Shown piece after piece: positions 10,510 through 59,567 of a stretch of 64,000 nucleotides of DNA. Position 1 is the first letter of the stretch; the number at the start of each line of letters is the position of its first letter. Below the pieces are notes generated by a model. It was not told where the DNA came from. It worked only from the letters and a program-made list of their open reading frames with translations, and made no database searches. Source of the DNA: Patescibacteria group bacterium (GTDB taxonomy: Bacteria; Patescibacteriota; Minisyncoccia; Phycocordibacterales; Phycocordibacteraceae); assembly GCA_028866135.1 (NCBI GenBank), contig JAGWIS010000001.1:13357-77356 (forward strand). The letters run 5' to 3'. The position numbers were made by a program, and so were the translations under genes.

Positions 10510-11160
10510 GTGCGCTACAATCGCCGCATGTGTTTTTCCGCAACGGCAAGCCTCGTAGCAGGCGGAGCGCTCACGGCAACGGGCGCCCTCACTATGTCGC
10601 AAGCAAAGACGAAAAAGGAACTTCCGCTTGCGAGCATTCCGCTTATCTTCGGCATCCAGCAGCTCACCGATGGTGTCGTCTGGCTTTCCTTCGGCGTGGA
10701 GCCGATTCACACAATCGCCGTATACGCGTATTCAATCTTTTCCCAAGCACTGTGGCCGATGTTTGTTCCCTGGGCACTCCTCCTTATAGAAACAGACCCC
10801 GCTCGAAAGAAAGCTTTGCGTCTTTTCTCCCTCTTTGGTCTTCTGGTGGGACTGTTTTTCCTTTTCTATATCGTTACCGGGCCCAACGTGGCAGAAATAG
10901 TGAACCACTGCGTCGCATACTACACCCCGCACCCGCACGTACTCACCACGCTCGCACTCTACCTCCTCGTAACGTGCGGATCCTGTCTCGTATCAAGCCA
11001 TAAACTGCTGAACATCTTCGGCATCGCGCTCTTCTTTTCGTTCATCATCTCGGGGTGGTTCTACATCGAGACGTTCTCCTCCGTCTGGTGCTTCTTCGCG
11101 GCGATCCTGAGCTTCATCATCTACTGGCATTTCCGCAGCCGCTCCGCGGCTGCGGCTTGA
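10510..11160 (+). CDS. Multi-pass membrane protein, function unknown.
   Basis: It has about 6 predicted TM helices. The true start is possibly MSQAKTKKE at about 10594. Confidence 0.4.
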   Translation: MRYNRRMCFSATASLVAGGALTATGALTMSQAKTKKELPLASIPLIFGIQQLTDGVVWLSFGVEPIHTIAVYAYSIFSQALWPMFVPWALLLIETDPARKKALRLFSLFGLLVGLFFLFYIVTGPNVAEIVNHCVAYYTPHPHVLTTLALYLLVTCGSCLVSSHKLLNIFGIALFFSFIISGWFYIETFSSVWCFFAAILSFIIYWHFRSRSAAAA

Positions 11161-11175
11161 GAGGCGTTCGTACTT

Positions 11176-11598
11176 TTACTCAAATACTTTCCGCCAAATG
11201 AAGCCGGGCTCCCCGCTAGGAGCCGCTGCCGGGCCGACTCTCTCAAAACCTGTGTGCTTATAAAATCCCCAAGACTTCCGATGGGCTTCGCTGCTATAGA
11301 GAACCGCCTCCGTGTAATGGCGGCTTTTCATTTCACTCAGCACTGCTTCCGCGAGCGCCTTCCCGATTCCGCAGCCCGGATTTTTCACGGCAAGGATGTA
11401 AAGTTCCGCCGGATTTCCGGTACTGGCAAAGGTGCGGATGTATGCGGGCGCTTTCCTCAAGATCGCCACTCCAACGACTTCTCCATTCTCCTCCGCAACG
11501 AAATATCCAAATTCCTGCTTTACTGATTCCGAAGCGTGGTTTACAAAATCAGCCAGTTTCTTTGAAAGCTTTTCTCTAAAGTCGCCCTCCCAATACAA
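11176..11598 (-). CDS. GNAT-family N-acetyltransferase.
   Basis: It has the acetyl-CoA-binding block AVKNPGCGIGKALAEA (Q/RxxGxG/A-like), and is 140 aa. Confidence 0.6.
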   Translation of the reverse strand: MYWEGDFREKLSKKLADFVNHASESVKQEFGYFVAEENGEVVGVAILRKAPAYIRTFASTGNPAELYILAVKNPGCGIGKALAEAVLSEMKSRHYTEAVLYSSEAHRKSWGFYKHTGFERVGPAAAPSGEPGFIWRKVFE

Positions 11599-11779
11599 AT
11601 CGTAGATACGCTCGACGGCTTCCGCATCCTCTCTTGGTGTTGGATGAGAATTCCAACGCGTCTCGAGCGCGATAACCTAGCACGACTTGGCTGCGGGATT
11701 GCGACTCGAACGCGTCCTGAGCGCGGGGAACCGCGCCCGAGACCCTTGACGAACTCGTGCGCACGTGTTGTGCTCGACT

Positions 11780-11853
11780 TGGCTGCCAGACTTGGATTCG
11801 AACCAAGATGACGACTTTCAGAGAGTCGCATCCTACCATTAGATGATCTGGCA
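11780..11853 (-). tRNA. tRNA-Gln (anticodon CUG), with CCA encoded.
   Basis: Hand fold: acceptor TGCCAGA/TCTGGCA, D arm ATCT-AATGGTA-GGAT, anticodon arm CGACT-CTCTGAA-AGTCG, T arm CTTGG-TTCGAAT-CCAAG, discriminator G plus CCA. Confidence 0.8.
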
Positions 11854-11947
11854 ATGGCACGACAACGTCGTGATTCTTAGAAGATACGGCATCGGGAGGG
11901 TTTATTCAACATGAAGCGCCGCGCCGCGGCTGGTATATAATGGCCCT

Positions 11948-13507
11948 TTGCACAAAGAATATTTCATGCCGCCCTCCCCCGCACACCTCTCCGATACAGA
12001 ACACAAAAACATCATGATCATCATGGGCGCGCTCATGCTCGTGCTCATGCTCGCGGCGCTCGACCAGACCATCGTCTCGACTGCGCTGCCGCGCATCGCG
12101 AGCGATTTCAATGCGCTCTCAGAGCTGTCTTGGGTGGTGACGGCGTATCTGCTCATGACCGCCGTCTCGACGCCGCTCTACGGCAAACTAAGCGACCTCT
12201 ACGGCCGCAAACGCGTGCTCTCCTTCGCCGTCGTGATATTTCTCATCGGATCGGCGCTCGCTGGCGCGGCGCAAACCATGCTTCAGTTGATCCTTTTCCG
12301 CGGGGTGCAGGGGCTCGGCGCCGGCGGACTGATGTCGCTCGTGCTCGCGGCCATCGGAGACGTCGTTCCCCCAAGGCAGCGCGGACGCTACCAGGGCTAC
12401 TTCGGCGCGACGTTTGGAATCGCAAGCGTGCTCGGACCGCTTCTCGGAGGACTCTTCACCGACCATCTCTCGTGGAGATGGATTTTCTACATCAACATCC
12501 CGCTCGGCCTGCTTGCGCTCGCCGCCATCTACGCGCGGCTTCCAAAACACAAGCACCATCGGGAGCATACGATCGACTACGGAGGCGCCTTGCTCCTTTC
12601 CGCGACTATCATCTCCCTGCTCCTGGTCGCGATGTGGGGCGGAACCGTCTATCCGTGGAACTCGCTCACGATACTTTCTCTCGGCGCGCTCGGCCTTTTC
12701 TCGGGAAGGCTCTTCGTGTGGTGGGAATCAGAAAGGTCGGAGGCGCTCATTCCTTTTTCTCTTTTTAGAAATTCGATTTTCCGCGTCTCCGCCCTGCTTT
12801 CGCTCGTTTCGGGCGTGGCGATGTTCTCGGCTATCGTCTTCTTGCCCGAGTATCAGCAGGTGGTGCGCGGATACTCGGCGACGACCTCCGGCCTCCTCAT
12901 GCTCCCGCTCATCTTCGGCCTCCTTACCGCCTCCATTGGATCGGGACGGATCATCTCCCACACGGGCCAGTATCGCATCTTCCCCATCGTGGGCGGACTG
13001 CTCACGATGTACGGCCTCTGGCTCCTCACTCATGCGGACGTCTCCACGTCGCAGTGGATCCTGTCGGTCTGGATGTTCGTCACCGGGCTCGGCATCGGCT
13101 CATCGCTCCAGGTGATGACGATCGCCGTGCAGAACGCCGTGCATCCGAAAGATCTCGGCGCGGCCACCTCCACCATCATGTTCTTCCGCAACATCGGCAG
13201 CACGATCGGCACGAGCATCCTCGGCGCGGTGCTCATCGCACGCTTCAGCGCGCACCTCGCCGAGCGCGTGCCGGAGGGGATCCAGGGATTCTCCATAACG
13301 CTCGGCATGAGCGTCGCGCAGATACAGAATCTTCCGCCCGCGGCTGCTGCAAATATTCTCGAAGCATTCGCGGCTGGCTTCCGCGACGTTTTTTGGTGGA
13401 CGATCCCATTTGCCGCCCTCGCGTTCGTCATCGCACTTTTCCTCAAGGAACAGCCGCTCCGCGAGGACGCTCATGAGCTCGCCGAAGGCGAAGTATTCGG
13501 CCTTTGA
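11948..13507 (+). CDS. MFS transporter, DHA2 (EmrB/QacA) family, 14 TM.
   Basis: 519 aa with typical MFS motifs ([12 protein letters not shown], multiple TM helices). Confidence 0.75.
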
Positions 13508-13589
13508 CGTTTCTCGCGCAAATGAACCACAGTCTCCTGACAAAATTAGCATCCGGCGCAAACGTCCAGAGAAGCTGTAGAATAACTCC

Positions 13590-15728
13590 ATGACCCGTTA
13601 CGTCTGCCCGATGCATGGCGAAGTCCTCCGCGATGTGCCGGGCAAATGCCCCGCCTGCGGCATGGACCTGGTCCCCTACCGCGAGGAGCATGCCAGCCAC
13701 GACACGGGGCACGCAAGCCACCACGACCACGAAGCCGCGATGACCGATCCGCAAATGGCGGAGCGGATGGAGGCAGACATGCGCAGGCGCTTTTTCATTT
13801 CGCTCGCGCTCACCATCCCCATCGTCCTCTACTCAAGCATGGGCGAGATGCTGTTTGGCGCCTCCCTCCCCTCATTCATTCCAAAAAATATACTGCTGTT
13901 TCTTCTGACGACGCCGATTGTCTTTTGGACGGGGTCGATTTTCATCACCGGCACGTACTACTCGCTCAAAGCCCGCAAGCTCAACATGATGGTGCTGATT
14001 GCGACCGGCGTGCTCGCGGCGTATCTCGGCAGCATCGCGCTCGCTTTCACCGGCAGCGGAGAGGCGTTTTACGAAGCGGCGGCGATGCTCGTCACCTTCG
14101 TCCTCTTCGGGCATTGGATGGAGATGAAGTCGCGGCGCGGGACTTCCGACGCGCTCCGCGCGCTCTTCGATCTCGTGCCGCCCCAGGCGCACGTCATCCG
14201 AGCCGGAAAAGAAGAAATCATACCGAGTTCGGAAATCGTGAAAGGCGACATCCTTGCGCTACGCCCGGGAGACAAAGTACCCGTTGATGGCGAGGTCGTC
14301 GAAGGCGAGAGTTCGGTAGACGAATCGCTCGTGACCGGCGAATCCGTCCCCGTCTCCAAAACCCCAGGCAGCGGCCTGGTCGGAGGATCGGTAAATCTCA
14401 CCGGAGCCGTCAGATTCAAAGCGACGAAAGTCGGCTCGGAGACCGTGCTTGCGCAGATCATCAAAATGGTCGAGACCGCGCAGAACTCGAAGGCGCCGGG
14501 ACAGCGCATCGCGGATACAGCCGCGGCATGGCTTGTCGTGCTCGCTATCGGCTCGGGCATCCTCGCCTTTCTCGGGTGGTATGTGCTTGCCGGAGCGACA
14601 TTCGTCACCGCGCTTACCTTCGCCATTTCAGCGATCGTCATCGCTTGCCCGGACGCGCTCGGGCTCGCGACCCCGACGGCGGTCGCCGTTGGCACCGGGC
14701 TCGGCGCGAAGCACAACATTCTCATAAAAGATGCAGCGACCTTGGAGAACACATCGCGCCTCACCGCCATCGTGCTCGACAAGACGGGCACGCTCACCGA
14801 GGGAAAACCGAAAGTGACAAAAATAGTTTCCGCCGCTCCCTACAGCGACCTCGAGGCGCTCAGCTTCGCAGCGGCGGTGGAGCAGCACTCGAATCATCCG
14901 CTCAGTCTCGCTATCATCGAGGAAGCGCGGAAAAGAAAGGTGCCGATTGAGAATGCGGAACGATTCGAATCGGTAAGCGGATACGGCGTGCGTGCCGCGG
15001 TTCGCGGCAAAGCGGTCATCGCGGGTACCGAGCGTTTGATGACGCAACACCATATCGATCTGTCGCCGCTCAAAAAAGAAATTGATTCCTTGCGCGCCGA
15101 GGGAAACACGCTCAGCATCGTCGCGATTGACGGAAAGGCTGCCGGAGTGATCGGCGCGGCCGACGTCGTGCGCGATTCCGCGAAGAAAGCCGTGGCGAAA
15201 CTGAAAGAGATGGGTCTTGAGGTGCTCATGATTACCGGCGACCATGAGCAGGTCGCGCACGCCGTGGCGAAGGAGCTCGGCATCGAACGCTATTTCGCCC
15301 AGGTGCTGCCCCAGGACAAAGCGACATACGTAAAGAAGCTTCAGGACGAAGGGAAAAGCGTCGCCATGGTCGGCGACGGCATAAACGACGCTCCGGCGCT
15401 CGCGCAAGCGGATATCGGCATCGCCATCGGCGCGGGGACAGACGTGGCGATAGAGACCGGCAGCATCGTGCTCATGAAATCCGATCCGTATGACATCGTG
15501 GCTGCGCTGCGCCTCAGCAGGGCGACGGTCGTGAAGATGAAACAGAACCTCTTTTGGGCGGCGATCTACAACGTGCTCGCTATCCCCGTGGCCGCCGGGG
15601 TCTTCTACTCTTCGCTCGGGTGGTCGCTGCGGCCGGAAATCTCCGCGCTTCTTATGTCCGCCTCCTCAATCATCGTCGCGACGAATGCCGTGCTTCTGAA
15701 GCGGGTCGAGCCGCGCCTTAGCGCATAG
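13590..15728 (+). CDS. P1B-type heavy-metal-translocating P-type ATPase (CopA-like).
   Basis: It has DKTGTLT, TGD and GDGINDAPAL motifs. The N-terminal Cys motif is CPMHGE...GKCPACGM. The TM6 motif reads IACPDALGLATP, that is CPD where copper pumps usually have CPC. Confidence 0.8.
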   Translation: MTRYVCPMHGEVLRDVPGKCPACGMDLVPYREEHASHDTGHASHHDHEAAMTDPQMAERMEADMRRRFFISLALTIPIVLYSSMGEMLFGASLPSFIPKNILLFLLTTPIVFWTGSIFITGTYYSLKARKLNMMVLIATGVLAAYLGSIALAFTGSGEAFYEAAAMLVTFVLFGHWMEMKSRRGTSDALRALFDLVPPQAHVIRAGKEEIIPSSEIVKGDILALRPGDKVPVDGEVVEGESSVDESLVTGESVPVSKTPGSGLVGGSVNLTGAVRFKATKVGSETVLAQIIKMVETAQNSKAPGQRIADTAAAWLVVLAIGSGILAFLGWYVLAGATFVTALTFAISAIVIACPDALGLATPTAVAVGTGLGAKHNILIKDAATLENTSRLTAIVLDKTGTLTEGKPKVTKIVSAAPYSDLEALSFAAAVEQHSNHPLSLAIIEEARKRKVPIENAERFESVSGYGVRAAVRGKAVIAGTERLMTQHHIDLSPLKKEIDSLRAEGNTLSIVAIDGKAAGVIGAADVVRDSAKKAVAKLKEMGLEVLMITGDHEQVAHAVAKELGIERYFAQVLPQDKATYVKKLQDEGKSVAMVGDGINDAPALAQADIGIAIGAGTDVAIETGSIVLMKSDPYDIVAALRLSRATVVKMKQNLFWAAIYNVLAIPVAAGVFYSSLGWSLRPEISALLMSASSIIVATNAVLLKRVEPRLSA

Positions 15729-26469: not shown

Positions 26470-26786
26470 AAAACGCCGGGGGAGTGGGTATTAGATAGTA
26501 ACTCGCGTACAGGGCAATGCTAGCACGAGCCAGAACCACAGAATTCACCGTGAGGAGGCTGTGTGGATAAAACGGAAAGACGATTCGTCTTTTTCATTAT
26601 GATGCACGTGGTGCGCGAGAGACGGGACTCTTTCCCTCGACTCTCGCTTCGCCGCCGCTCAGCTCGGTCTGGGCACAGCCTCGCGGCGATCACTGCCGTC
26701 CGCACATCGCTCCGGCATTCAACTCGCAAAGCTTCGCTTCGCGCTCTCGCGCAAAACACAAAGCCCCTTGCGGGGCATGTGTTTTG

Positions 26787-27071
26787 CGCGAGAGACGGGA
26801 CTTGAACCCGCAACCTCCGCCGTGCACGTTTCCACTGCTTTCGAAGTGGCGTGGACTATATCTTCACCATGGGTATTCCGTTAGGTGTTCCGGTATCTAG
26901 TCTCTACGGCGCCCCGCCACACTTTTGCGGTGTGGCGGGTTCCCTCGGTATTCGCATATTCGCCTACGGCGAACGTAGCCTCCACCGATATCCCAGAAAG
27001 TTTCAATCCCGATTTCTCGAGAAAGCTGCACGTCTACAGGGCGGCGCTCTAACCAGTTGAGCTACTCCCGC
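26787..27071 (-). tRNA. tRNA-Asp (anticodon GUC) interrupted by a group I intron, 285 nt in total.
   Basis: 5' exon 27071-27036 is GCGGGAG-TA-GCTC-AACTGGTTA-GAGC-G-CCGCC-CUGU. 3' exon 26824-26787 is CAC-GGCGG-AGGTT-GCGGG-TTCAAGT-CCCGT-CTCTCGC-G. The joined anticodon loop CUGUCAC and the T arm match E. coli tRNA-Asp, and the discriminator is G. Confidence 0.7.
26825..27035 (-). ncRNA. Group I intron (Azoarcus-like, subgroup IC3 type) in the anticodon loop of tRNA-Asp.
   Basis: The minus strand contains GUAGAGACUAGAUACCGG (P7 region; compare Azoarcus GUAGAGACUAGACGGCACC) and GAAGAUAUAGUCC. The intron ends with G. P1 can form between exon CUGU and intron GCAG with a U-G pair at the splice site. 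Confidence 0.7.
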
Positions 27072-27473
27072 ATTCCTAAATCCCGGATCGCATCTTTAAG
27101 CTTGATTCGCTTGCGCGGCAGATGCAACCTCGGAATTTTACCAGTATGATACATAATTCGATGAAGCGCAACGCTGTCGGTATGACTGAAGACCAGCTCA
27201 AAACCCCGAGTCTTTTTCTTTAACGAACCTCCGCGAATACCGCACCTTGTGTGCCCTGCTCTGCCGTTTTCGTTTCTGAATCTTATGCGTGGAGCCAACG
27301 GCGTTTCGGATCATTTCCAGAACGATACGGTCTGTAATGGTGAATTCGATGAAGTGCCCGTCGCGCTTATTGCGAATCATGGAACCATCTGCCGCGAAGA
27401 AACCGAGCACGTATGCCATTTCGGGCGACCATGTCTTGAAGAAATCATGATTCAGGTCTCGGTGCACCGGCAT
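27062..27473 (-). pseudogene. LAGLIDADG homing endonuclease, frameshifted into two ORFs (27198-27473 and 27062-27298).
   Basis: The upstream ORF has the LAGLIDADG motif AYVLGFFAADGSM. Its basic C-terminus breaks into a second frame. Together the two pieces are about 165 aa, typical for single-motif enzymes. Confidence 0.5.
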
Positions 27474-27551
27474 AGGTAAATACTATGATAGGGCATGACT
27501 ACAAGACTCGCGAAGTTGTACGGAAAGAAAATCGAATATTTCTTGTAGATC

Positions 27552-28397
27552 TTGTGGCGATTGTTCCATGGGATTGCCGCATATCCTGCTATCATGACTG
27601 CAATGCGCAATCGCTTCTTCGGTATTCCGATATTGCTTGTCGTTTCCGGCATGTTCGTCCTCGGACTCGCAGGATTCCTGCTCTTTACGACCGGGAACGA
27701 GCGCATCTACTCCGGAGTCTCCGCAGCCACCTCGACCCCGGCTTCTCCAAACACCGCTTCATCATCGCCAACGCGCGCCGGCAAGACCATATACCTCACG
27801 TTCGACATGGATATGAACGAGTTCATGTACAAGAAGACGGTCACGACGGGCGAGAAATGGTACGACCCTGCCGTATTCGCATACCTGGAGCAGAACCATA
27901 CCCCCGCATCGTTCTTCGTATCGGGGCTCTTCGCCGTCGCCTACCCCGACCTCATGAAGAGCCTCGCGTCGACGAGCGAGTTCTCTTTCGAGAACCACAG
28001 CTACGACGAAGCGTCCTTCACCCCGCACTGCTATTGGCTCACTGCCCTCGGGAACGATTCGGCCAAGGCCGCCCAGATTGAAGCGACCGAACGAATCATC
28101 CAGTCGCTCACCGGACAGACACCCAAGTATTTCCGTTTCCCGGGCATCTGTCACGACAAAGCAAGCGACGCACTCGTGGAAAGCTTAGGCTACGTCATCA
28201 ACGACGGGACGGTCGTGCCGAGCGACCCGTTCAACACCGATACCAAGAGAATGGTCCGGACGGTCATGAGCAAGGCGAGGGATGGCGCGACCATCATCAT
28301 GCACGTCGGAGGACATAACGCGCCAGAGAGCCTCTTCTTGCTCGAACAGATCGTGCCCGGCCTCAAGGCCGAAGGATACGCGTTCGAAAAGCTGTGA
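27552..28397 (+). CDS. Polysaccharide deacetylase (NodB / CE4 family), membrane-anchored.
   Basis: It has an N-terminal TM helix, then NodB-like blocks (IYLTFDMDM, HSYDE) and the C-terminal HVGGH. Confidence 0.55.
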   Translation: MWRLFHGIAAYPAIMTAMRNRFFGIPILLVVSGMFVLGLAGFLLFTTGNERIYSGVSAATSTPASPNTASSSPTRAGKTIYLTFDMDMNEFMYKKTVTTGEKWYDPAVFAYLEQNHTPASFFVSGLFAVAYPDLMKSLASTSEFSFENHSYDEASFTPHCYWLTALGNDSAKAAQIEATERIIQSLTGQTPKYFRFPGICHDKASDALVESLGYVINDGTVVPSDPFNTDTKRMVRTVMSKARDGATIIMHVGGHNAPESLFLLEQIVPGLKAEGYAFEKL

Positions 28398-28494
28398 TAT
28401 GACATAACGAACACGATTGCCCTGTTATGGACAACCGTGTTCCGCTGCCGCAATAGTTCGCATCATGCGCGCATGCGGAGTGCGCACAGAGATG

Positions 28495-28848
28495 TTATTT
28501 GCCCGTCGTACCGCTCTCTGGTGCATCCGGCGTGGCGTCCTGATGGTCACCCGTCTGATTCACCTGATCGTTCGGGCCTCCGGCCGGATCGTTCGCAGAT
28601 GTCTGCTCACCGGTTGACGCTTCTGCCGTTGCGTCCTGCACATCCGAACCCTGCGCACCGGACTGGATATTGTCCGTATCAGGACCGCTCGCGTGCTCGC
28701 TATCTGAAGTCTGTACGGTCGTGGAGGAACCGGTGACGACTGGCGTCGTGCTGCCGCTGCTCGCGTGCGCGTACATGCCGATCGTCGCCGCGCTGCCGAT
28801 AAGGAGTACCGGAACCATGAGCGCCGCTTTCTTGAAGAGATTTTTCAT
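28495..28848 (-). CDS. Secreted low-complexity Ser/Thr/Asp-rich protein.
   Basis: It has a signal peptide MKNLFKKAALMVPVLLIGSAA followed by low-complexity sequence. Confidence 0.35.
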   Translation of the reverse strand: MKNLFKKAALMVPVLLIGSAATIGMYAHASSGSTTPVVTGSSTTVQTSDSEHASGPDTDNIQSGAQGSDVQDATAEASTGEQTSANDPAGGPNDQVNQTGDHQDATPDAPESGTTGK

Positions 28849-28955
28849 AATTCGAATCGTTAGTTATGCGGGTAAATGTTCGATTACTATGGCTCAGGCG
28901 ATGCGCTGAGCCTGCGGGCAAGTATGCGCTCGCATGCGTCAAGCGCGTGTAAAGG

Positions 28956-29984
28956 CTAGGCGAGCGGCAAGCGCACCTCGACTCGCGTACCGGAGCCAAG
29001 AACGCTTTCTATCCCTACCGAACCGCCCGAGCGCCCGACAAGTTCTTTCACGAGCGCGAGCCCGAGCCCGCTCCCGGCGCTTTTCTCTCCCTTATAGAAG
29101 GGCTCGAACACGCGCGATAGCGCATCGGGCGCGATGCCGACGCCCGTATCCTTTATCTCGATGAGCGCATAAGCGCCTTGCGGGCGTGCCGTTACCTGCA
29201 CCGTCCCTCCCTTGGAGGTATGCGCGAATGAGTTCTGGATGAGGTTACGCACCGCACTGCCGATATCCGGTACCGCGCGAATCATAAGCTCAGGATCTCC
29301 TTCGTATGAGAGCTTGAGGCCCTGCTCGCGTGCGAGCTTCGTAAACGGCTCGAGCTCTTCGCGAACAAGCGAGTCGAGGTTGAGCGGGCGAGGATTCCCC
29401 ATCCCGCCCTCGAGCCGCACGAGCGCGAGCAGGGTTCCGATGATGCGTTCCATGCGTGAAAGTTCCTCAAGGTTACTGAGAGCAACTTCTCTGGCATCCT
29501 CCGGCCGCCGGTACGCGCTTCGCGCTAGTCGCTCGGTATCGCTACGCATGATGGCGAGCGGCGTGCGCAGTTCATGGGAAGCGTTCGTCGCGAACGCGCG
29601 CTGGGCGCGATTCGCGCGTTCGATAGGACGCAGAAGAAGCCCTGATGCGTAGTAGCTCGCGGCAGTAACGCATAGGAGCAGTGCGATATCGGCATATGCG
29701 AGCGAATTCAGGACGCTTGAGGTCGTGCCGCTCACGAACTGCTGGACGTTGTCCTGCTGCTGCACGTTGTCCGTATCGGCAGGTATGCCGCCCGATTTCG
29801 TGACTTGGCTGCCGATATCGGTCACGTCGGACGTGACGTTCAGGTATACGTACGCGCTGAACGCACCGGCTACCGCGAGTGCCACTGCAAACGACAGCAG
29901 CGTAAATCGGATTCGCGCTCGTACGAAGAGCTTAGAATCGGAGCCGATAGCCGATTCCCCGGATGGTTTCGATTGATACGTCAT
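28956..29984 (-). CDS. Sensor histidine kinase.
   Basis: It has the H box ASHELRTPL, N box, G boxes IKDTGVGI and GSGLGLAL, and two N-terminal TM helices. Confidence 0.8.
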   Translation of the reverse strand: MTYQSKPSGESAIGSDSKLFVRARIRFTLLSFAVALAVAGAFSAYVYLNVTSDVTDIGSQVTKSGGIPADTDNVQQQDNVQQFVSGTTSSVLNSLAYADIALLLCVTAASYYASGLLLRPIERANRAQRAFATNASHELRTPLAIMRSDTERLARSAYRRPEDAREVALSNLEELSRMERIIGTLLALVRLEGGMGNPRPLNLDSLVREELEPFTKLAREQGLKLSYEGDPELMIRAVPDIGSAVRNLIQNSFAHTSKGGTVQVTARPQGAYALIEIKDTGVGIAPDALSRVFEPFYKGEKSAGSGLGLALVKELVGRSGGSVGIESVLGSGTRVEVRLPLA

Positions 29985-30606
29985 CGCAATGCTTTATCAG
30001 TTTAGCGCGCAGGTTGTTCACATGCACGTCCACGACGCGGCTCAACTGATTCGCCGCGAAGTCCCAGAGATGGTCGAAGAGATCCTGGCGGGAGACAACT
30101 TCATGAGGTCGTCCCATGAAATACTCGAGAAGACGGAATTCTTTCAAGGTGAGCGGGAGCGTGTGACCATCGCATCGCGCCTCCTGCGTTGCCGGATCGA
30201 GAGCGAGCGAGCCGACGCGCAAGACCGGCGCATGCGCCGCACGCGGACGCCTCCCGAGCGCTCTGATGCGGGAGAGCAGCTCCGCGAAAGCGAACGGCTT
30301 CACGAGGTAGTCGTCCGCGCCGCAGTCGAGCCCAAGCACCCGGTCCTCAACCGCGTCACGGGCCGTGAGCATGAGAACGGGTGTCACGATGCCGCGCTCC
30401 CGGGCATCCCTGCACAATGCGATGCCGTCCTTGCCCGGCAAAAGAAGATCGAGGATGACGAGGTCGTAATCGCCATGATGGACCGAAAGCCGCCGATCCG
30501 CTGCCAGACCGTCTTTCTCGACGTCGACCGCGTAGCCTTCCTCTTCAAGCGCGCGGGCGATCGATCTCGCGAGCTTCGGTTCGTCTTCAACGAGCAGGAT
30601 GCGCAT
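29932..30606 (-). CDS. OmpR-family response regulator.
   Basis: It has a receiver domain (MRILLVEDE...DLVILDLLLPGKDG) and a winged-helix output domain (...GYRLRF). Confidence 0.8.
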   Translation of the reverse strand: MRILLVEDEPKLARSIARALEEEGYAVDVEKDGLAADRRLSVHHGDYDLVILDLLLPGKDGIALCRDARERGIVTPVLMLTARDAVEDRVLGLDCGADDYLVKPFAFAELLSRIRALGRRPRAAHAPVLRVGSLALDPATQEARCDGHTLPLTLKEFRLLEYFMGRPHEVVSRQDLFDHLWDFAANQLSRVVDVHVNNLRAKLIKHCDDVSIETIRGIGYRLRF

Positions 30607-30615
30607 ATGCGGAGC

Positions 30616-31239
30616 TTACTGTCCGACGACTTCGGCACCGCCCGGAGCCTTGGTCGCCGTTGCATATACCGGTGCGTATCCGGGCGTGCTTACCTCGACC
30701 TTGAACGTGAGCTTATCCGTAGCGGTGCCGTATATGCCGTGCATATTGACTCCATAGTGTCCCGGGCCGGATGCGCCGTCAAAGTTGACGGTACCTGACC
30801 CCTGTGGCGGAAGCGAGAAACCCGTAAGCTGTTTGTAATAGCCCTCTTGCTTGCCGTTTGCAGCATCGACGACGGTATAGTACGCCTCGAAATTCGAGAG
30901 CGTCTTGTTGGTCAAGTTCTTGAGCGTGAACTGCAGGTGGTCGCTCACCGGGTTCCCCGCCGCGTCCACGTTGTTCTCGGTCATGATTGACGAGACGGCA
31001 AAGCCTTTTGCGGTCGCGGCGTTTTTGATCGGATTCGGATACAGGCCGGGAACGATGTCCTCGGCGCCTTGGGCCGACGCGGTACTGGTCGTCGCCTGCA
31101 CTGGAGACGTGTGCGCTGGAACCGCTTGCATAGGAACCGAAGGATGGTTCTGTGTCGTTGTGCGCCCGCCGGAGAGCAAGACAAACGCTCCGACCGCGAC
31201 GACCGCGACGGCGATACCGATAATGACGTTTTTGTTCAT
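30616..31239 (-). CDS. Membrane-anchored extracytoplasmic protein, function unknown.
   Basis: It has an N-terminal TM anchor (VIIGIAVAVVAVGAFVLL) and a Thr/Ser-rich linker. It lies between the response regulator and the ABC permeases. Confidence 0.4.
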   Translation of the reverse strand: MNKNVIIGIAVAVVAVGAFVLLSGGRTTTQNHPSVPMQAVPAHTSPVQATTSTASAQGAEDIVPGLYPNPIKNAATAKGFAVSSIMTENNVDAAGNPVSDHLQFTLKNLTNKTLSNFEAYYTVVDAANGKQEGYYKQLTGFSLPPQGSGTVNFDGASGPGHYGVNMHGIYGTATDKLTFKVEVSTPGYAPVYATATKAPGGAEVVGQ

Positions 31240-31268
31240 ACGAGTATGATTATGTTTCGTAATGCTAT

Positions 31269-32252
31269 TCATGGCGAAGCTGCCATGATGCGTGAGGGAC
31301 GCGCGCTCAGGTACGCGAGTACGATGCTTCCCATAAGGAACACAAGAAGCACGAGCAGGTCAGGCCACTTGTCATGCATGATGAATCCGAGCGACTTGTC
31401 GTTATACGTGGTCTTGATTCCGAGTGTCGCGAACGTGAGACGCTCGTAATGCTTCTCTACTGAGCTCACTTCGAGCGCATTTCTGAAGTTCTCGTACCGC
31501 CTGAACTGGTTTATCACGGCGGTTTGCCCGTCCTGGGTCATATGCAGGTGCGCGAAGAAACCGCCTGGTACCTGGTTGTCAGGATCCATCGTGTCGCCAA
31601 TCTGCGGGATGATGAGCACGAACACGAGCCAGAGCGAGAACGCGAGCATGAGCGCGCGGGGCAGGTTCGGCACGAGGAGCGCGAGCGCCGCTGAGAAACA
31701 GAAGAAGAACAAGAGATACCCGTAGGTATACATGAGCACAAGGCCGAGCTTCATGAGTTCGCTCGCCGAAAACGCGACGTGCCCGACGAATGTGACCGCG
31801 GCGACAGAGAAAACGCCTATACCGAGGACGAGCGCGATAAGAATGATACTCGCACCGAGCAGCTTCCCACCGACAAAACTGCCGCGCGTCACCGGACGGA
31901 CGAGAAGGAGACGCGAGGCGTTGCTCCCTTTCTCCTTTGCGATCGCCAGATAGCCGAGCACGAGCGCAATAATCGCGCCGATGACCTCAAGATACTCGAT
32001 GGTGCCGCGCAGCATTTGGAGCGGATAATATGCGGGCGCAGTAAGCACGATGGACTTCAGCTGGTCCGGCGATAGCTGAGAGAGTGCCGCGTGGTACTGT
32101 GCCACCTGCGACTGGAATGCGAACGAGGCTACAAGGATCGAAACGCCGACGAGGAGAAGCAGGAAAAACGCGAGCGTGGCAAAAAGCGAGTTGCGCAGGG
32201 CATCCGTGACCTCCTTTTTCGCGATGATACCGATTATGCGAAGTCTCTTCAT
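31269..32252 (-). CDS. ABC-2 family exporter permease (second of two).
   Basis: The start MKRLRIIG (ATG 32252) forms an ATGA overlap with the stop of the upstream permease. It has 6 TM helices. The listed N-terminal extension is Arg-rich, probably non-coding. Confidence 0.65.
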   Translation of the reverse strand: MKRLRIIGIIAKKEVTDALRNSLFATLAFFLLLLVGVSILVASFAFQSQVAQYHAALSQLSPDQLKSIVLTAPAYYPLQMLRGTIEYLEVIGAIIALVLGYLAIAKEKGSNASRLLLVRPVTRGSFVGGKLLGASIILIALVLGIGVFSVAAVTFVGHVAFSASELMKLGLVLMYTYGYLLFFFCFSAALALLVPNLPRALMLAFSLWLVFVLIIPQIGDTMDPDNQVPGGFFAHLHMTQDGQTAVINQFRRYENFRNALEVSSVEKHYERLTFATLGIKTTYNDKSLGFIMHDKWPDLLVLLVFLMGSIVLAYLSARPSRIMAASP

Positions 32253-33184
32253 AGGTAGAGATCGCGCGTGACGGCATATCGGCGGAGTGCGAACGCGCTC
32301 GCGCCGATCGCGACACCGACGTAGGCGAGGAGCGCGAACAATGAAGCGATACTGTTGCCGATCCCTCCCCCGAGCATGCCGAGCGCACTTCGCGTGTACA
32401 ACTGACCAACGGAGAACGGGCTCAGGAGGCGATGTGCGGCCGTAAAGAACAACCCTTGGTCCGGGATCGCGCCCGTGAGCGTCACCGGATTCAGGAGGGC
32501 GACCGGGTTCTGCCCAGTCGTCAGTTCCGGCAAGATAAAGACAGCAGCCACCCACACGAGTATCGGCATAAAGAGCGCGGTGGATTCATTTTTCATAATG
32601 ACCGAGAAAAACAGCCCGGCCGCCGCGAAGAATGCGAGGTAGACGAGCGAGACCGCATAAAAGCCAAGGAGCGCCGCGTAACCACCCGCAGGCAAGCGGA
32701 GCGCGGGAATGAAGGCCGCGGAGAACGCGCTCACCGCATACGTTGCAAAGACAATACCCGTAAGCGCGAGCAGTATGCCAAGAAGTTTCGCGCCGATGTA
32801 CCGTGCGCGCGAGATAGGACGCACGAAGACGAGCGGTAAAACACCCGCGGCGCGCTCGCGGATGAATGAGCGGTGGCCGATAACGATGGCGAGCAAGGCA
32901 CCTATGAGAAGCAGGTAGACGAGCATGTTGTCGAACACGAGAAGCGGCGAGACGCCAGTGAGCGGATCCGCCACGATGCTCGTGACGCCCTGTGCTGCAA
33001 GATATGCGACAGACGCGTGGTAGATGGCCTCGGTCGTCGTGCGCGTAGACCACCCGATGTAGACCGAGAAGAACGTCATGGCCATAAAGATGGCGAGGAG
33101 AAGCAGGAACGTCTTCTCGCGCGCGAGCGTCGTGAGCTCATGGCGCACGACGCTCGCGAATACCGATGGCGCACGCGCACTCAT
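32249..33184 (-). CDS. ABC-2 family exporter permease (first of two).
   Basis: It has 6 TM helices and is translationally coupled to the ATPase (4-nt overlap) and to the second permease. Confidence 0.65.
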   Translation of the reverse strand: MSARAPSVFASVVRHELTTLAREKTFLLLLAIFMAMTFFSVYIGWSTRTTTEAIYHASVAYLAAQGVTSIVADPLTGVSPLLVFDNMLVYLLLIGALLAIVIGHRSFIRERAAGVLPLVFVRPISRARYIGAKLLGILLALTGIVFATYAVSAFSAAFIPALRLPAGGYAALLGFYAVSLVYLAFFAAAGLFFSVIMKNESTALFMPILVWVAAVFILPELTTGQNPVALLNPVTLTGAIPDQGLFFTAAHRLLSPFSVGQLYTRSALGMLGGGIGNSIASLFALLAYVGVAIGASAFALRRYAVTRDLYL

Positions 33185-33960
33185 ACGAGCTCTTCCATCT
33201 GCACGTAGATTGCCTCGAGCGACACCTCGTCCGGAAAATCCGCGAGCGTCTTCTCGAGCGACTCGTTGTAGATGAGGCGTCCGCGATTCAACACGCCGAT
33301 AGAGGTGCAGGTCTTCGACACTTCCGAGAGCAGGTGCGTATTCATGAAGATGGTCATGCCTTTTTCTTGATTGAGCCGCAGGATGACGTCACGCAGATTC
33401 TTAATGCCAACCGGGTCGAGGCCGGTCGTCGGCTCATCCAAGAAGACAACCTCGGGTTCGTGAAGTATTGCTTGCGCGAGCCCGATCCGTTGGCGCATGC
33501 CTTTCGAGAAGGTCTTGAGCTTCCTGTGCTCGATGCCGCGAAAATCAAGAAACCCGAGCGCTTCGTCGATACGTTCGTCAACGTTCTTCACACCCGAGAG
33601 ACGCGCGAAATACGCCAGATTCTCATAAGCGGTGAGGTCATTGTAGAACGTGATATTCTCCGGCAGGTACCCAATACGACGACGTACCTCGTCCGCTTCG
33701 GAGACGGTATCGAACCCAGCAATACGCGCTGCACCCGCGGTTTGGCGCAAAAGCGTCGTAAGAATGCTGATGGTCGTCGTCTTGCCCGCCCCGTTATGCC
33801 CAAGGAAGCCGAATATCTCGCCACGAGGGATGGCGAGATTCAAATCATGGAGAACCGTTTCTCCGCCATAAGAGTGCGTCAAACCATCAAGTTCGATGAC
33901 AGGGGCATCTTTCTTTATGTTCGGCTCGACGACTGCATGGGACGGTAATTTCATGTGCAT
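33181..33960 (-). CDS. ABC transporter ATP-binding protein (BcrA-like).
   Basis: It has Walker A GHNGAGKTT, signature FSKGMRQRIGLA and Walker B FLDEPTTGLD. The start is taken at MHMKLP. Confidence 0.8.
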   Translation of the reverse strand: MHMKLPSHAVVEPNIKKDAPVIELDGLTHSYGGETVLHDLNLAIPRGEIFGFLGHNGAGKTTTISILTTLLRQTAGAARIAGFDTVSEADEVRRRIGYLPENITFYNDLTAYENLAYFARLSGVKNVDERIDEALGFLDFRGIEHRKLKTFSKGMRQRIGLAQAILHEPEVVFLDEPTTGLDPVGIKNLRDVILRLNQEKGMTIFMNTHLLSEVSKTCTSIGVLNRGRLIYNESLEKTLADFPDEVSLEAIYVQMEELV

Positions 33961-34034
33961 ACTATATGCACGGGTATGTAAAGAAACTGTAAAGGTCGCT
34001 GCACCCACGAAATGCGAGTGTCTCGTGGTATAAG

Positions 34035-34508
34035 ATGATAATGAATTTGTTTTTCATTCTCGCGGCGAAATATTTATACCTCGTCCCTGTTGCGATACTC
34101 GGCGTGTATTTCCTTCTACAAGAGCGTGGGGCTTGGAAGCGCATGGCTTTCTTCGCCATTCCTGCTGGCCTGTTCGCACTTGCGCTCGGCACGCTTGCCA
34201 ATCACCTGTATTTCGACCCGCGCCCGTTCGTCGCCCTGCACTTCACGCCGCTCGTCCCGCACGCGCCTGATAACGGCTTTCCGTCCGATCACACGCTCCT
34301 CGTTTCTGCCGTCGCGATGATTGGCACGCTCTGGAATCGCCGTCTCGGCATCGTACTCTGGGCACTCGCGCTCCTCGTCGCGATCGGTCGCGTATATGTC
34401 GGCCTGCACCATGTGCTTGATGTGGCGGGCAGTGTCGTCATCTCCTTCGTGGCGGTACTATTGACCTATGCCGCCTACACATACCTCTGGCATAAGGAGA
34501 TTGCTTAG
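34035..34508 (+). CDS. PAP2-family phosphatase (undecaprenyl-diphosphatase, BcrC-like).
   Basis: It has the PAP2 motifs FPSDHT and GRVYVGLHHVLDV on a small membrane protein. Confidence 0.65.
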   Translation: MIMNLFFILAAKYLYLVPVAILGVYFLLQERGAWKRMAFFAIPAGLFALALGTLANHLYFDPRPFVALHFTPLVPHAPDNGFPSDHTLLVSAVAMIGTLWNRRLGIVLWALALLVAIGRVYVGLHHVLDVAGSVVISFVAVLLTYAAYTYLWHKEIA

Positions 34509-34998
34509 CGAGAAGAACATCCATCTCGTCTTCGACGTAAGCCTCTGGCTGAAGGCTGTCTTCGCGTTTGGAGAGATTCTATCGGGTATCGCGACGTATT
34601 TCGTCTCAAAGGAGCTTCTCGTACAAATAATCTTTCTCGTCACGAAGGCAGAGTTTGCCGAGGATCCGCACGACCGGCTCGCGAACTACCTGCTCCACGC
34701 CGCACAGAATCTCTCAATCGGAGCGCGCGATTTCGCCGCGATATACCTCATCGCCCACGGCATCGTGAAGCTCTGGATCATCGCGGGCCTTCTGCGCAAG
34801 AAGCTTTGGTATTACCCGACCGCCATGATTGTTTTCGGTCTCTTCATCGTCTACCAGCTCTACCGGTTCGCCTTTACGCATTCCGTTCTTCTTATCCTCA
34901 TCACTATCCTCGATCTCATCGTCATCGGACTCACGTGGCATGAGTGGCGGTACCTGAGTCGCGTCCTGAAAAAAAGTGCGGCATCGTCCGGACAGTAG
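34468..34998 (+). CDS. DUF2127-like membrane protein.
   Basis: It has 4 TM helices. The start is likely the TTG at 34501, immediately after the PAP2 stop, rather than the listed overlapping ATG. Confidence 0.4.
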
Positions 34999-35560
34999 CG
35001 CGAGAAAATGGACAATACCTGCGCGCCGGTCGTGGATCCCATCCGCGCGAGCACGATGAAGCAGATGTTCGAGAAGGTCGGCAACGAGCGGTGGAGAACC
35101 GGCCGAAGCACAGGTTCCAGGATTTCATCTTCACCAAGCTCATGCTCTGCGGGGAGTGCGGCTCGGGTATCACAGCCCAGGAGAAGCAGAAGGGCCTTGC
35201 GAGCGGCGGCCTGGCCTTCTATGTCTACTACTCCTGCCGCAGGTCCAAAGACCGCGCATGCAAGAATCCGTACATACGCGAGGACCGGCTGATCGAACAA
35301 CTGCTCGCGCTCCTCGGCGAGGTATCGATAGACGAGATAGGGGCGCGGCACCTTATCGAGAAGGAAGTATCCCGATACAACAAGCTGCGGACGGCGATGC
35401 GCGACGGGAGCGAGAAAGTGAAAGCGGACGAGATGGACACGTACGGCGATACGCGAAGTACTTGCTTGAGAACGGCACATTGCCCGAGAAGCGGGAACTC
35501 CTGAGCCATCTCAAGGAAAGGATCGTGCTGAAAGAGCGGAAGATCGCACTCGAGAACTGA
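34944..35560 (+). pseudogene. Large serine recombinase remnant. The N-terminal catalytic domain is missing and the rest is spread over three frames.
   Basis: One frame has the recombinase zinc-ribbon region [19 protein letters not shown]...[33 protein letters not shown] second frame has a recombinase-domain-like segment [14 protein letters not shown] third has the C-terminal coiled-coil tail [36 protein letters not shown]. Confidence 0.55.
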
Positions 35561-35663
35561 CGCAAAAGACGCGATTATGATCGCGTCTTTTGCGGCAAAT
35601 ACCCCTGACGGTACCGCACCAAATTCGAGGCCAGACGGTCTCAAATAGGGATGCTGACTGCTG

Positions 35664-35735
35664 TGCCGATGAGTGGAATCGAACCACTGTCTAGGGCTTA
35701 TGAGTCCCTCGTTCTAACCATTGAACTACATCGGC
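35664..35735 (-). tRNA. tRNA-Met (anticodon CAU, elongator type or Ile2), no CCA encoded.
   Basis: Fold: acceptor GCCGATG/CATCGGC, D arm GTTC-AATGGTTA-GAAC, anticodon loop CTCATAA, T arm AGTGG-TTCGATT-CCACT, discriminator A. Confidence 0.7.
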
Positions 35736-35942
35736 AAAGTGAGGAACAATATGACTGTCCTCAGTTATATTTTCCGAACGCAGCCGATGCAAGCCTTCTT
35801 ACATCGGCGAGCGAGAGCATACGGAAATGTATGTCCCCATACATTTCCGTATGCCTCGAGCGAGCCGGATGAAAGCGTGCAAGCAACGCTTACAGCGGCA
35901 ATTCATCGGTTCGTTACTGAAACACTACCAAAGGCTTCCTGT

Positions 35943-58838: not shown

Positions 58839-59080
58839 GTGTAGCAGAAACGCCCGTTTTATCGCAGTTCGATTCCGTTACCCATGCTCAAAATCTGATC
58901 TATTTCGTTATGACTACACCACAAAACCACCCGAGTACGTGAGTACCGGAATCGCACTGGATATGTGTTGAAAATGCTGTGTGACCTCGCGCAGATATGC
59001 GCTTTTATCGCTCGACACCCGTGCCGGTCTTGAACCAATTTTGACGCGTAACGGTCTCTGATATGGGTCGCACTAGTCTG

Positions 59081-59398
59081 TTGCGGGGGTGGGACTTGAA
59101 CCCACGTCTGGAGGTTATGCTTGCCACTACAATTTTCATTGCCCTATGGTTTGTGGTCTGGACTATGCCTTCACCCGTCACACTGATTTTAAATCTAGTG
59201 AGGCGGGTGTCTGCCGTCTAGTCTCTACACCTTCTCCGCGATATGGCGAGTCGCCTATCTCACGGAGCTTGGCTCGGTATTGCCTTTCGCTTTTTGCAGG
59301 AAGGGTTCGCCGAATTTGACAGATGATCTTACGCGCAATTACTCGCGCGCACGCCCGAATGACTCAAGCCTCCCGAGGTACCTCTCCTCTACCCCGCT
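59081..59398 (-). tRNA. Initiator-like tRNA-Met (anticodon CAU) interrupted by a group I intron, 318 nt in total.
   Basis: The 5' exon (59398-59367) is AGCGGGG-TA-GAGG-AGAGGTA-CCTC-G-GGAGG-CU. The 3' exon (59119-59081) is CAUAA-CCTCC-AGAC-GTGGG-TTCAAGT-CCCAC-CCCCGCA-A. The joined loop is CUCAUAA. The 3' end CCCCGCAA and the A1-A72 mismatch resemble bacterial tRNA-fMet. Confidence 0.65.
59120..59366 (-). ncRNA. Group I intron (Azoarcus-like IC3 type) in the anticodon loop of the tRNA-CAU gene.
   Basis: The minus strand has GGUGUAGAGACUAGACGGCAGACACC (near-identical to the Azoarcus P7 region) and GGCAUAGUCC. The intron ends with G before the 3' exon, and a P2-like hairpin CGCGC-GAGUAAUU-GCGCG lies near its 5' end. 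Confidence 0.65.
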
Positions 59399-59567
59399 AA
59401 TAATCAGTATACATAGAAAAAATTGCGGAGCAACTTGGATTTGGAAGCGAGAAAATGGTCCGAGATGCGCGACGCGGGAAGCTGGCTTTCGGAGACGTAC
59501 TAGAAGGTACGGCGAAGGAAGTCAGCGGGGCCCGCAACAAAGCAGATGGGATTATTTTCTCGCTTCC

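Follow-up and report, generated by a model that had tools for sequence, protein, structure and literature searches.

We analysed a 64,000-nucleotide stretch of Patescibacteria DNA (contig JAGWIS010000001.1, positions 13,357–77,356; hereafter the window), in which the remains of a large serine recombinase (LSR) lie beside a tRNA-Met gene, next to genes for an ABC transporter, a lipid phosphatase and a two-component system. The segment at ∼27502–35661 is likely to be a degenerate genomic island that was inserted by an LSR, is now fixed and carries putative envelope-defence genes. A first-pass annotation of the same DNA had taken the site for the trace left by an integrative element whose integrase is gone. 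This reading as a mobile island is supported: relatives with an empty site, a conserved element end abutting the tRNA gene and a set of cargo genes shared with an intact element at another locus (L152) all bear it out. The further proposal of a formerly mobile resistance island, now fixed, holds for mobility and fixation, whereas its range has to be redrawn to the one given above, which also takes in a polysaccharide deacetylase, a small secreted protein and a DUF2127 protein. To our knowledge, Patescibacteria have tiny genomes in which few mobile elements have been mapped at base-pair resolution. The locus provides a cleanly delimited case of gene gain, in which the site can be compared empty and occupied and the element has an intact relative.

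An insertion next to tRNA-Met

The tRNA-Met(CAT) gene (35663–35735, minus strand; found by ARAGORN and matched by Rfam RF00005 with 71.7 bits) is intact and is the putative integration target. Its 3' end, with the discriminator at 35664, points left, towards the island and the recombinase relic. The first base pair of the tRNA is G1:C72, and it is therefore not an initiator but an elongator tRNA-Met or tRNA-Ile2.

Sixty-one loci around relatives of the neighbouring ApbE gene were fetched, and the genes and tRNAs of the window were mapped on them. This gene and the homologues of the relic point to a Patescibacteria genome of the Kaiserbacteria/Paceibacterota kind. In Kaiserbacteria-like relatives the usual order is DH–ApbE–(variable)–tRNA-Met–(LAGLIDADG open reading frame (ORF))–tRNA-Asp–g25082–g24173–tRNA-Thr–tRNA-Thr–g22354. 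The distance from tRNA-Met to tRNA-Asp is ∼50–800 bp in at least 13 relatives of different species and 8.6 kb in the window; the module is present at this site in none of these relatives. DNA alignment with two of the relatives, L006 and L012, revealed a tRNA-Met (93% identical to 35662–35744), a 34-bp spacer and then the homologue of window positions 27501→27316. The points on the tRNA-Met side and at 27501 are thus 34 bp apart in L006 and L012 and separated by 8160 bp in the window (∼27502–35661), which identifies these 8160 bp as an insertion. The tRNA at the empty site of L012 and L033 is likewise 93% identical to the tRNA-Met of the window. Such presence/absence polymorphism at a conserved chromosomal site is one of the marks by which islands at tRNA genes are recognised. 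Another locus, L034, was considered as a second island at the same tRNA and was ruled out, since its ApbE-adjacent tRNA(CAT) is a different tRNA.

The opposite flank of the tRNA gene differs as well. Between ApbE and tRNA-Met, L006 and L012 hold ∼1.8–2 kb (positions 10740–12800, with the gene for a different ABC ATPase) that the window lacks at 35736–35942. Both flanks of tRNA-Met are therefore structurally variable.

Remains of a large serine recombinase

The LSR pseudogene occupies 35011–35560 of the plus strand and is distributed over three frames (35011–35106, 35115–35441 and 35429–35560). The ORF at 34944–35504 matches the Pfam family Zn_ribbon_recom (PF13408) with E=6.7e-11 and 42.8 bits against a cut-off of 25.3; weaker NCBIfam matches are to XisF and CcrB. 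The remains had been located beside the 3' end of tRNA-Met, and they do end 100 bp from it. Of the extent first assigned to them (34944–35560), the end stands but the start does not: the relic begins at ∼35011, and 34944–34998 is the 3' end of the DUF2127 gene. Tblastn searches with intact homologues placed the piece at 35011–35106 at residues ∼193–220 of a 444-aa LSR, that at 35115–35441 at residues 298–405 and that at 35429–35554 at residues 402–443, with 45–55% identity to the intact LSRs of L152 and L002. The tail, comprising the zinc beta-ribbon and the coiled coil, is 50–63% identical to intact or longer homologues, and the closest intact-frame relatives are 77–85% identical. With 61 database homologues at E≤1e-5, the similarity is far beyond chance.

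The same searches returned no match to residues 1–192 (the catalytic domain and the alphaE helix) anywhere in the 64-kb window, nor to residues ∼221–297; ∼190 codons have been lost at the 5' side of the relic and ∼77 internally. Of the three profiles that had been proposed for a search of the recombinase frames, only Zn_ribbon_recom was matched. Pfam detected in the relic neither the Resolvase domain with its nucleophilic serine (PF00239) nor the Recombinase domain (PF07508), of which a ∼30-aa fragment remains at 35011–35106. The description of a tail scattered over three frames with no catalytic domain is therefore accurate, and an independent Logan assembly (L001), 99.6% identical over the relic, the tRNA and ApbE, has the same broken frames. 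By its sequence, the locus is a descendant of an LSR gene and not a functional member of the family.

Two other explanations of the truncated gene were rejected. All 61 first matches to the relic are short and lack PF00239, and four of them begin at the same MILGSQAKLENDNKS, as a family of recombinase-like proteins without a catalytic domain might do. However, intact LSRs of 444–463 aa exist in the same clade; many of the short homologues come from short or error-prone contigs, on which genes are called as fragments or with frameshifts, and in L004 the N-terminal part of the LSR lies in another frame. A gene split by its own integration, as in SSV1, was discarded because it is DUF2127, not the tRNA, that lies next to the relic's broken 5' end; the truncation points, moreover, differ between LSR copies.

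Directly 3' of the relic stop codon, a repeat search located a hairpin (35558–35597, plus strand) with 18-nt arms that are 94% complementary. Hairpins of different sequence occupy the same place in L003 and L004, and this one probably acts as a terminator that separates the recombinase gene from the tRNA, the two being convergent.

The element end and its tRNA targets

The conserved right end of the element (35598–35662, plus strand), an attR-like P-arm half-site, contains GGCC..ACGGTC (GGTC at 35637–35640) and GCTGAC-N4, and reaches up to the base after the tRNA discriminator. In the window it reads GGCCAGACGGTC...GCTGACTGCT|G-tRNA-Met. The motif and its spacing are nearly identical before tRNA-Val (L003), two tRNA-Gly genes (L004), and tRNA-His and tRNA-Arg (L002), which places the conserved end next to six different tRNAs, counting the window, L003, and two copies each in L004 and L002. 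Read in the sense of the tRNA, the discriminator A is followed at every junction by CA (CCA for tRNA-Arg) and next by sequence of the element; at the empty site of L012 the sequence is ...GGCA-CA-AAGAAAT. The tetranucleotide GACC at +18 to +24 from the tRNA end was present in 17 of 21 LSR-linked tRNA flanks compared to 7 of 88 other flanks (Fisher p=4.7e-11). An integrase at the target-proximal edge, accompanied by a conserved att half-site, is what is expected of an island.

These sequences fit an att half-site of a serine recombinase, with the crossover 1–3 nt past the tRNA discriminator. Because the crossover would lie beyond the tRNA, no tRNA sequence is repeated. A directly repeated tRNA-Met 3' end had been anticipated as the mark of attL, which is the wrong expectation for a serine recombinase: such enzymes cross over at 2 bp and long direct repeats are not expected, and the junctions lack them.

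The intact LSRs of the clade (463 aa in L002, 444 aa in L152) both contain the Resolvase, Recombinase and Zn_ribbon domains. Among the copies for which the fetched DNA includes a downstream tRNA, that tRNA is convergent in 22 of 22 (9/9 in the first set and 13/13 in IMG/VR, the latter set comprising 33 loci), and the tRNAs next to clade LSRs span at least 13 amino-acid specificities. Genes for type I and type III restriction-modification, methyltransferases and reverse transcriptases are found in other elements of the clade, which thus moves variable accessory or defence cargo. Searches of the literature returned no description of LSR/tRNA islands in Patescibacteria or of this LSR clade. On balance, we favour the view that it is an undescribed LSR clade, common in Patescibacteria and IMG/VR contigs, which inserts small cargo islands right behind the discriminator of many tRNA genes, appears to use the generic tRNA 3' end as an att half-site and does not duplicate the tRNA, with restriction-modification genes, reverse transcriptases or diversity-generating retroelements, and the envelope module among its cargo. 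If this is true, the clade would be a tRNA-generic serine-integrase system and one of the chief means by which these reduced genomes acquire accessory genes for defence. The intact LSRs of the clade might also be integrases with a universal, conserved and non-disruptive landing site.

Two further observations were made on members of the clade. In L002 (7215–9626) and L003 (6757–9261) truncated clade recombinases lie 1–3 kb from a reverse transcriptase (RVT_1), and L003 also contains a bAvd gene, a signature of diversity-generating retroelements, which suggests that these retroelements are another cargo of the tRNA-end elements. On a single contig, L004, two near-identical copies of the element end and recombinase are found at two different tRNA-Gly genes (CCC and TCC anticodons; 5620–7119 and 12687–14192), which suggests that a recombinase need not be confined to a single tRNA target. 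The latter contig is full of frameshifts and probably stems from a long-read assembly.

Was the module cargo of the element?

The gene order in the metagenomic relative L152/L153 is PAP2, ATPase, permease 1, permease 2, a 218-aa protein, response regulator, histidine kinase, a 114-aa protein and an intact 444-aa LSR, followed by a convergent tRNA-Ser. The proteins are 40–75% identical to their counterparts in the window. The PAP2 homologue stands directly upstream of the ATPase, and PAP2 is next to the transporter genes in both the window and L152/L153. That eight gene families adjoin the same LSR clade in two genomes and at two different tRNAs is our main reason for considering it likely that the module travelled with the element.

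Several observations weigh against this conclusion and against the island as such. The LSR is positioned differently, after the histidine kinase in L152 and after the PAP2–DUF2127 pair in the window, and DUF2127 and the deacetylase are not in the L152 island; these differences presuppose both rearrangement and internal deletion. Only 12 nt separate the truncated start of the relic from the DUF2127 stop codon, and this direct contact, too, implies that DNA was deleted or rearranged within the island at least once. Among 80 metagenome loci with relatives of permease 2, which sample the wider family of the transporter cassette, an LSR adjoins the cassette in none and PAP2 is present in only three. 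Other elements of the clade transport restriction-modification or reverse-transcriptase genes and not the ABC/two-component module, to which the IMG/VR LSR loci gave no matches. The island is also compositionally unremarkable. The difference that had been expected does not appear in GC content (0.579 versus 0.576 for the window), in tetranucleotides (mid-range distance) or in GC content at third codon positions (0.65–0.76, inside the range of the flanking, host genes). Finally, the tRNA-Met 3' end does not recur even when 3 mismatches are allowed, the two island ends are linked by neither direct nor inverted repeats, and no far-side att site was found, a GGTC half-site being absent from 27500–27620. 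Although long flanking repeats are not expected of a serine-recombinase island, a P' half-site is. The left boundary zone (27502–27546), to the left of which homology to the empty-site relatives resumes at 27501, contains no recognisable att half-site; the candidate left junction TCTA-CA-AGAAAT may be set beside the L012 attB, GGCA-CA-AAGAAAT. This left edge is probably a deletion scar.

The relic and the module could accordingly be unrelated neighbours. A small LSR element at tRNA-Met would have been deleted nearly entirely, and the module would have reached the hotspot by homologous recombination of the flanks or by separate insertions, never having been LSR cargo. The truncation 12 nt from DUF2127, the missing attL, the orientation and content of the module, which are unlike those in L152, the 80 cassettes free of LSR linkage and the variable ApbE side of the tRNA, indicative of a generally plastic region, would all agree with such a history. 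We nevertheless regard it as unlikely, because the empty-site relatives lack all 8160 bp as a single unit, of which the relic forms the tRNA-proximal edge, and because coincidence would hardly have put the same eight gene families beside an intact LSR from this clade in L152.

It is highly improbable that the block is ancestral at the locus, was deleted in the sampled relatives and was joined later by an unrelated recombinase relic. The host-like composition would suit an ancestral block, and Patescibacteria genomes are prone to reduction. However, the tRNA-Met/tRNA-Asp adjacency is shared by the 13 or more relatives described above, and no relative has the module within ±10 kb, where only weak ATPase and histidine kinase paralogues (24–33%) were matched. 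The closest homologues of the module occur in unrelated contexts, with an extracytoplasmic-function (ECF) sigma factor in L147–149 and with IS30 and MmeI-type defence genes in L150. Moreover, the empty-site junction is located exactly where the LSR clade inserts at other tRNAs. Acquisition as cargo of the LSR element is thus the reading that we retain.

Genes of the module

Pfam and NCBIfam searches corroborated the gene assignments that had been made from the sequence, namely PAP2, an ATPase, two ABC-2 permeases, a membrane-anchored protein and a histidine kinase/response regulator pair. The ABC ATPase gene (33181–34008, minus strand; ABC_tran E=1.8e-31) encodes a protein 75% identical to its L152 counterpart. 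Its best NCBIfam match is the DrrA subfamily (234 bits against a cut-off of 312), and by sequence it is a generic DrrA-like ABC-2 ATPase; the true start codon is probably ∼17–26 codons inside the ORF. The two permeases both belong to PF12679. Permease 1 (32249–33184, minus strand; E=1.4e-14) is 57% identical to its L152 homologue and has a weak match to GldF (E=7.5e-5); permease 2 (31269–32252, minus strand; E=2.6e-24) is 65% identical to its homologue and weakly similar to NosY (7o0y_D, E=1.4e-3). Matches of the permeases to PF12730 and PF13346 are weak (PF12730 E=1.7e-4 to 4.7e-3, under the gathering score), and NCBIfam yielded nothing at E≤0.01 besides the weak GldF match.

The fourth gene (30616–31272, minus strand) encodes a single-pass membrane protein of 218 aa that belongs to no Pfam family and has 45 homologues. 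It consists of an N-terminal helix, a disordered linker and an extracytoplasmic Ig-like beta-sandwich. In the AlphaFold2 model, residues 80–210 have mostly pLDDT values of 88–98 (blocks of 10 residues), with two dips to 66–78. Matches to the fold are generic (Wzt carbohydrate-binding domain, ApaG and Kir C-terminal domain; TM 0.3–0.4), the best being the carbohydrate-binding domain of the Wzt O-antigen exporter, which is itself weak (E=1.1e-4, TM 0.35). Translational coupling had been proposed for the transporter genes, and three 4-nt ATGA overlaps (ATPase/permease 1, permease 1/permease 2 and permease 2/218-aa gene) confirm it. In the 80 metagenome loci the ATPase is upstream in 37 of 38, a homologue of the 218-aa protein follows permease 2 in 43 of 54, and a response regulator is near the cassette in 20 of 42. 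The 218-aa protein is therefore a conserved fourth component of the transporter cassette, the core of which, ATPase–permease 1–permease 2–218-aa protein, is conserved and widespread in diverse metagenomes. A function assigned to this widespread, uncharacterised core would carry over to many genomes.

The response regulator (29932–30606, minus strand) is of the OmpR family, with 242 bits to NCBIfam RppA and matches to many OmpR-type models, and is 69% identical to that of L152. Its gene overlaps by 53 nt with that of the sensor histidine kinase (28956–29984, minus strand; HisKA E=2.9e-13, HATPase_c E=9.8e-24; 47% identical to L152), an overlap that is conserved in L152. As read from its sequence, the kinase has two transmembrane segments separated by a ∼48-aa loop and no HAMP domain. 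In Bacillota, short-loop kinases without HAMP domains work with detoxification transporters, to which arrangement the kinase of the window is linked by resemblance only. Downstream of the kinase gene lies that of a small signal-anchored protein of 117 aa rich in Ser, Thr, Gly and Asp (28495–28848, minus strand), with a 40%-identical homologue of 114 aa in L152.

The PAP2-family lipid phosphatase (34035–34508, plus strand; Pfam PAP2 E=2.4e-17) is encoded divergently from the ABC operon and has a 45%-identical homologue in L152. It had been called an undecaprenyl-diphosphatase. The PAP2 family is confirmed but the narrower assignment is not, as the protein scores far below the cut-offs of the NCBIfam equivalogs of SepP/YbjG type (62–65 bits against 229–250; 64.6 versus 250 in one case); the closest solved structure is LpxE (6ebu, E=2e-3). 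From its sequence the protein is a candidate undecaprenyl-diphosphate phosphatase. The following gene, overlapping by 41 nt, encodes a DUF2127 membrane protein (34468–34998, plus strand; PF09900 E=3.1e-30), for which an exact-sequence look-up returned no matching record. The leftmost gene of the insert, within the segment missing from L006 and L012, encodes a polysaccharide deacetylase of the peptidoglycan type (27552–28397, plus strand; Polysacc_deac_1 E=1.1e-17).

Proposed history and function

The sequences show directly that DNA was inserted, where the junction lies and to which families the recombinase and the other genes belong, and the following history may be proposed from them. An LSR of a clade common in Patescibacteria would have inserted the island by conservative site-specific recombination 1–3 nt downstream of the tRNA-Met discriminator, leaving the tRNA intact and duplicating no tRNA sequence. 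Through later deletions and frameshifts the LSR would have lost its catalytic domain and the island, apparently, its far-side att site, with the consequence that the island could no longer excise and would be fixed on two counts. The cargo would comprise a six-to-seven-gene operon (ATPase, two permeases, anchored beta-sandwich protein, response regulator, histidine kinase and small secreted protein), the divergent PAP2–DUF2127 pair and the polysaccharide deacetylase.

The combination of a regulated ABC-2 exporter, a phosphatase of the undecaprenyl-diphosphate (C55-PP) type and a deacetylase of the peptidoglycan type points, by analogy, to envelope defence. We infer the substrate, the resistance phenotype and the regulatory wiring of the module as follows. 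The histidine kinase, possibly together with the transporter, would sense an envelope-active compound, and the response regulator would then turn on the exporter, which would remove the compound or shield the cell against it. PAP2, through C55-PP recycling, and the deacetylase, through peptidoglycan modification, may harden the envelope. Such a package for envelope-directed sensing and export would be relevant to an episymbiotic life exposed to antimicrobials of the host or of competitors.

A doubtful but by no means negligible alternative is that the cassette is a regulated exporter or assembly system for an envelope component of the cell itself or for a metal, like GldAFG, NosDFY or Wzm/Wzt, and that PAP2 and the deacetylase serve normal envelope biogenesis. 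The PF12679 permeases with their weak similarity to GldF and NosY, the weak resemblance of the accessory domain to that of Wzt and the wide occurrence of the cassette in diverse metagenomes without PAP2 are in line with it, and the cassette proteins reached no curated resistance model in NCBIfam, which also counts against envelope defence. On the other side, accessory, horizontally moved cassettes linked to two-component systems or ECF sigma factors are typical of stress and defence, the kinase resembles those of the detoxification transporters of Bacillota, if by resemblance only, and both Kaiserbacteria-type islands add PAP2. Envelope defence remains our preferred, though putative, function for the island.

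Relationship to known systems

The module had been likened to BcrABC. The analogy in architecture is sound: BcrABC with BacRS of Bacillus licheniformis and bcrABD-type modules also have an ABC exporter clustered with a PAP2-type phosphatase and a two-component system, likewise on mobile or accessory DNA. Membership, however, is not indicated. BcrABC has one permease, BcrB, and no anchored beta-sandwich protein, whereas the window has two different PF12679 permeases coupled to such a protein; its PAP2 is divergent and, given its rarity in the wider family, not a general partner of the cassette, and no curated Bcr or UppP model was reached.

The same gene logic, with an ATPase, two distinct ABC-2 permeases, an anchored extracytoplasmic protein, an OmpR-type response regulator and a histidine kinase, characterises LanFEG–LanI–LanRK and CprABC–CprRK. 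The layout of the LanFEG-type clusters is present in the window and is kept in L152 and many metagenome loci, which is a likeness of architecture only. The lantibiotic-protection ATPase model TIGR03740 has a cut-off of 310 bits, of which the ATPase attains 185, and it is thus not a member. The 218-aa protein has no detectable similarity to LanI, and the window also differs from the lantibiotic systems in its main permease family, PF12679, and in having no lantibiotic genes nearby. NosDFY and GldAFG share this permease family (NosY and GldF matches as given above) and, like the window, pair it with an extracytoplasmic accessory partner. Their accessory proteins, the beta-helical NosD and the large GldG, are nevertheless unrelated to that of the window, which contains no nos or gliding genes and in which the cassette is horizontally mobile and controlled by a two-component system.

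Among LSR integrases (phiC31, Bxb1, A118, the Ccr proteins of SCCmec, XisF), the intact relatives of the relic share the order Resolvase–Recombinase–Zn_ribbon–coiled coil. Those integrases use sites inside protein genes, whereas this clade uses the extreme 3' ends of many tRNA genes; its hosts are Patescibacteria, and the copy in the window is frameshifted and lacks the catalytic domain. The 3' ends of tRNA genes are a niche usually ascribed to tyrosine integrases (PMC4383910). The tRNA islands of the latter (Islander/TIGER-type; PMC4383910) resemble the one described here in having cargo 3' of a tRNA, the integrase at the tRNA-proximal edge and a variable presence. They differ in that here the enzyme is a serine recombinase, insertion takes place immediately beyond the tRNA, of which no part is displaced or duplicated, and no direct repeat flanks the island. 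Tycheposons of Prochlorococcus are likewise small cargo-carrying elements at tRNA hotspots of streamlined genomes (bioRxiv 10.1101/2020.12.28.424599). In them an LSR is found in a minority of cases, whereas it is the rule in this clade; they belong to another phylum, and no replication module was seen in the elements of the clade. Tyrosine-integrase tRNA islands and the minority of LSR-bearing tycheposons are the nearest precedents found.

Other features of the window

Left of the island, a LAGLIDADG_3 homing-endonuclease-like ORF (27198–27473, minus strand; E=5.8e-7) lies between tRNA-Met and an intron-bearing tRNA-Asp. It is ∼270 bp shorter than its counterpart in L012 and L006 and probably decaying, and it is kept at the same position in several island-free relatives. 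The tRNA-Asp(GTC) gene (26760–27072, minus strand) was missed by ARAGORN because its exons, 27072–27036 and 26824–26760, are separated by a group I intron of ∼211 nt that lies in the anticodon loop (Rfam Intron_gpI 26832–27029, E=5.7e-6, under the gathering score); joining 27036 to 26824 results in a tRNA-Asp of 75 nt. Patescibacteria are reported to have a class of tRNA introns at position 35/36 (PMC13011429), to which this one conforms.

A second group I intron in a tRNA gene is located at 59127–59375 (minus strand; Rfam 56 bits, over the gathering score). The exons around it are at ∼59376–59412 and 59073–59126, and the tRNA is Met, Cys or Leu depending on the splice junction. This intron lies in a stretch of lower GC content (55–59 kb, ∼50% GC) with Fur, ZIP and YibE/F genes. 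GC content is lower still at 4000–7000 (37–41% versus ∼58% for the window), where a CYTH-domain protein and a GDSL lipase are encoded, along with a protein of 476 aa that weakly matches class-I tRNA synthetases; this stretch is possibly another acquired segment.

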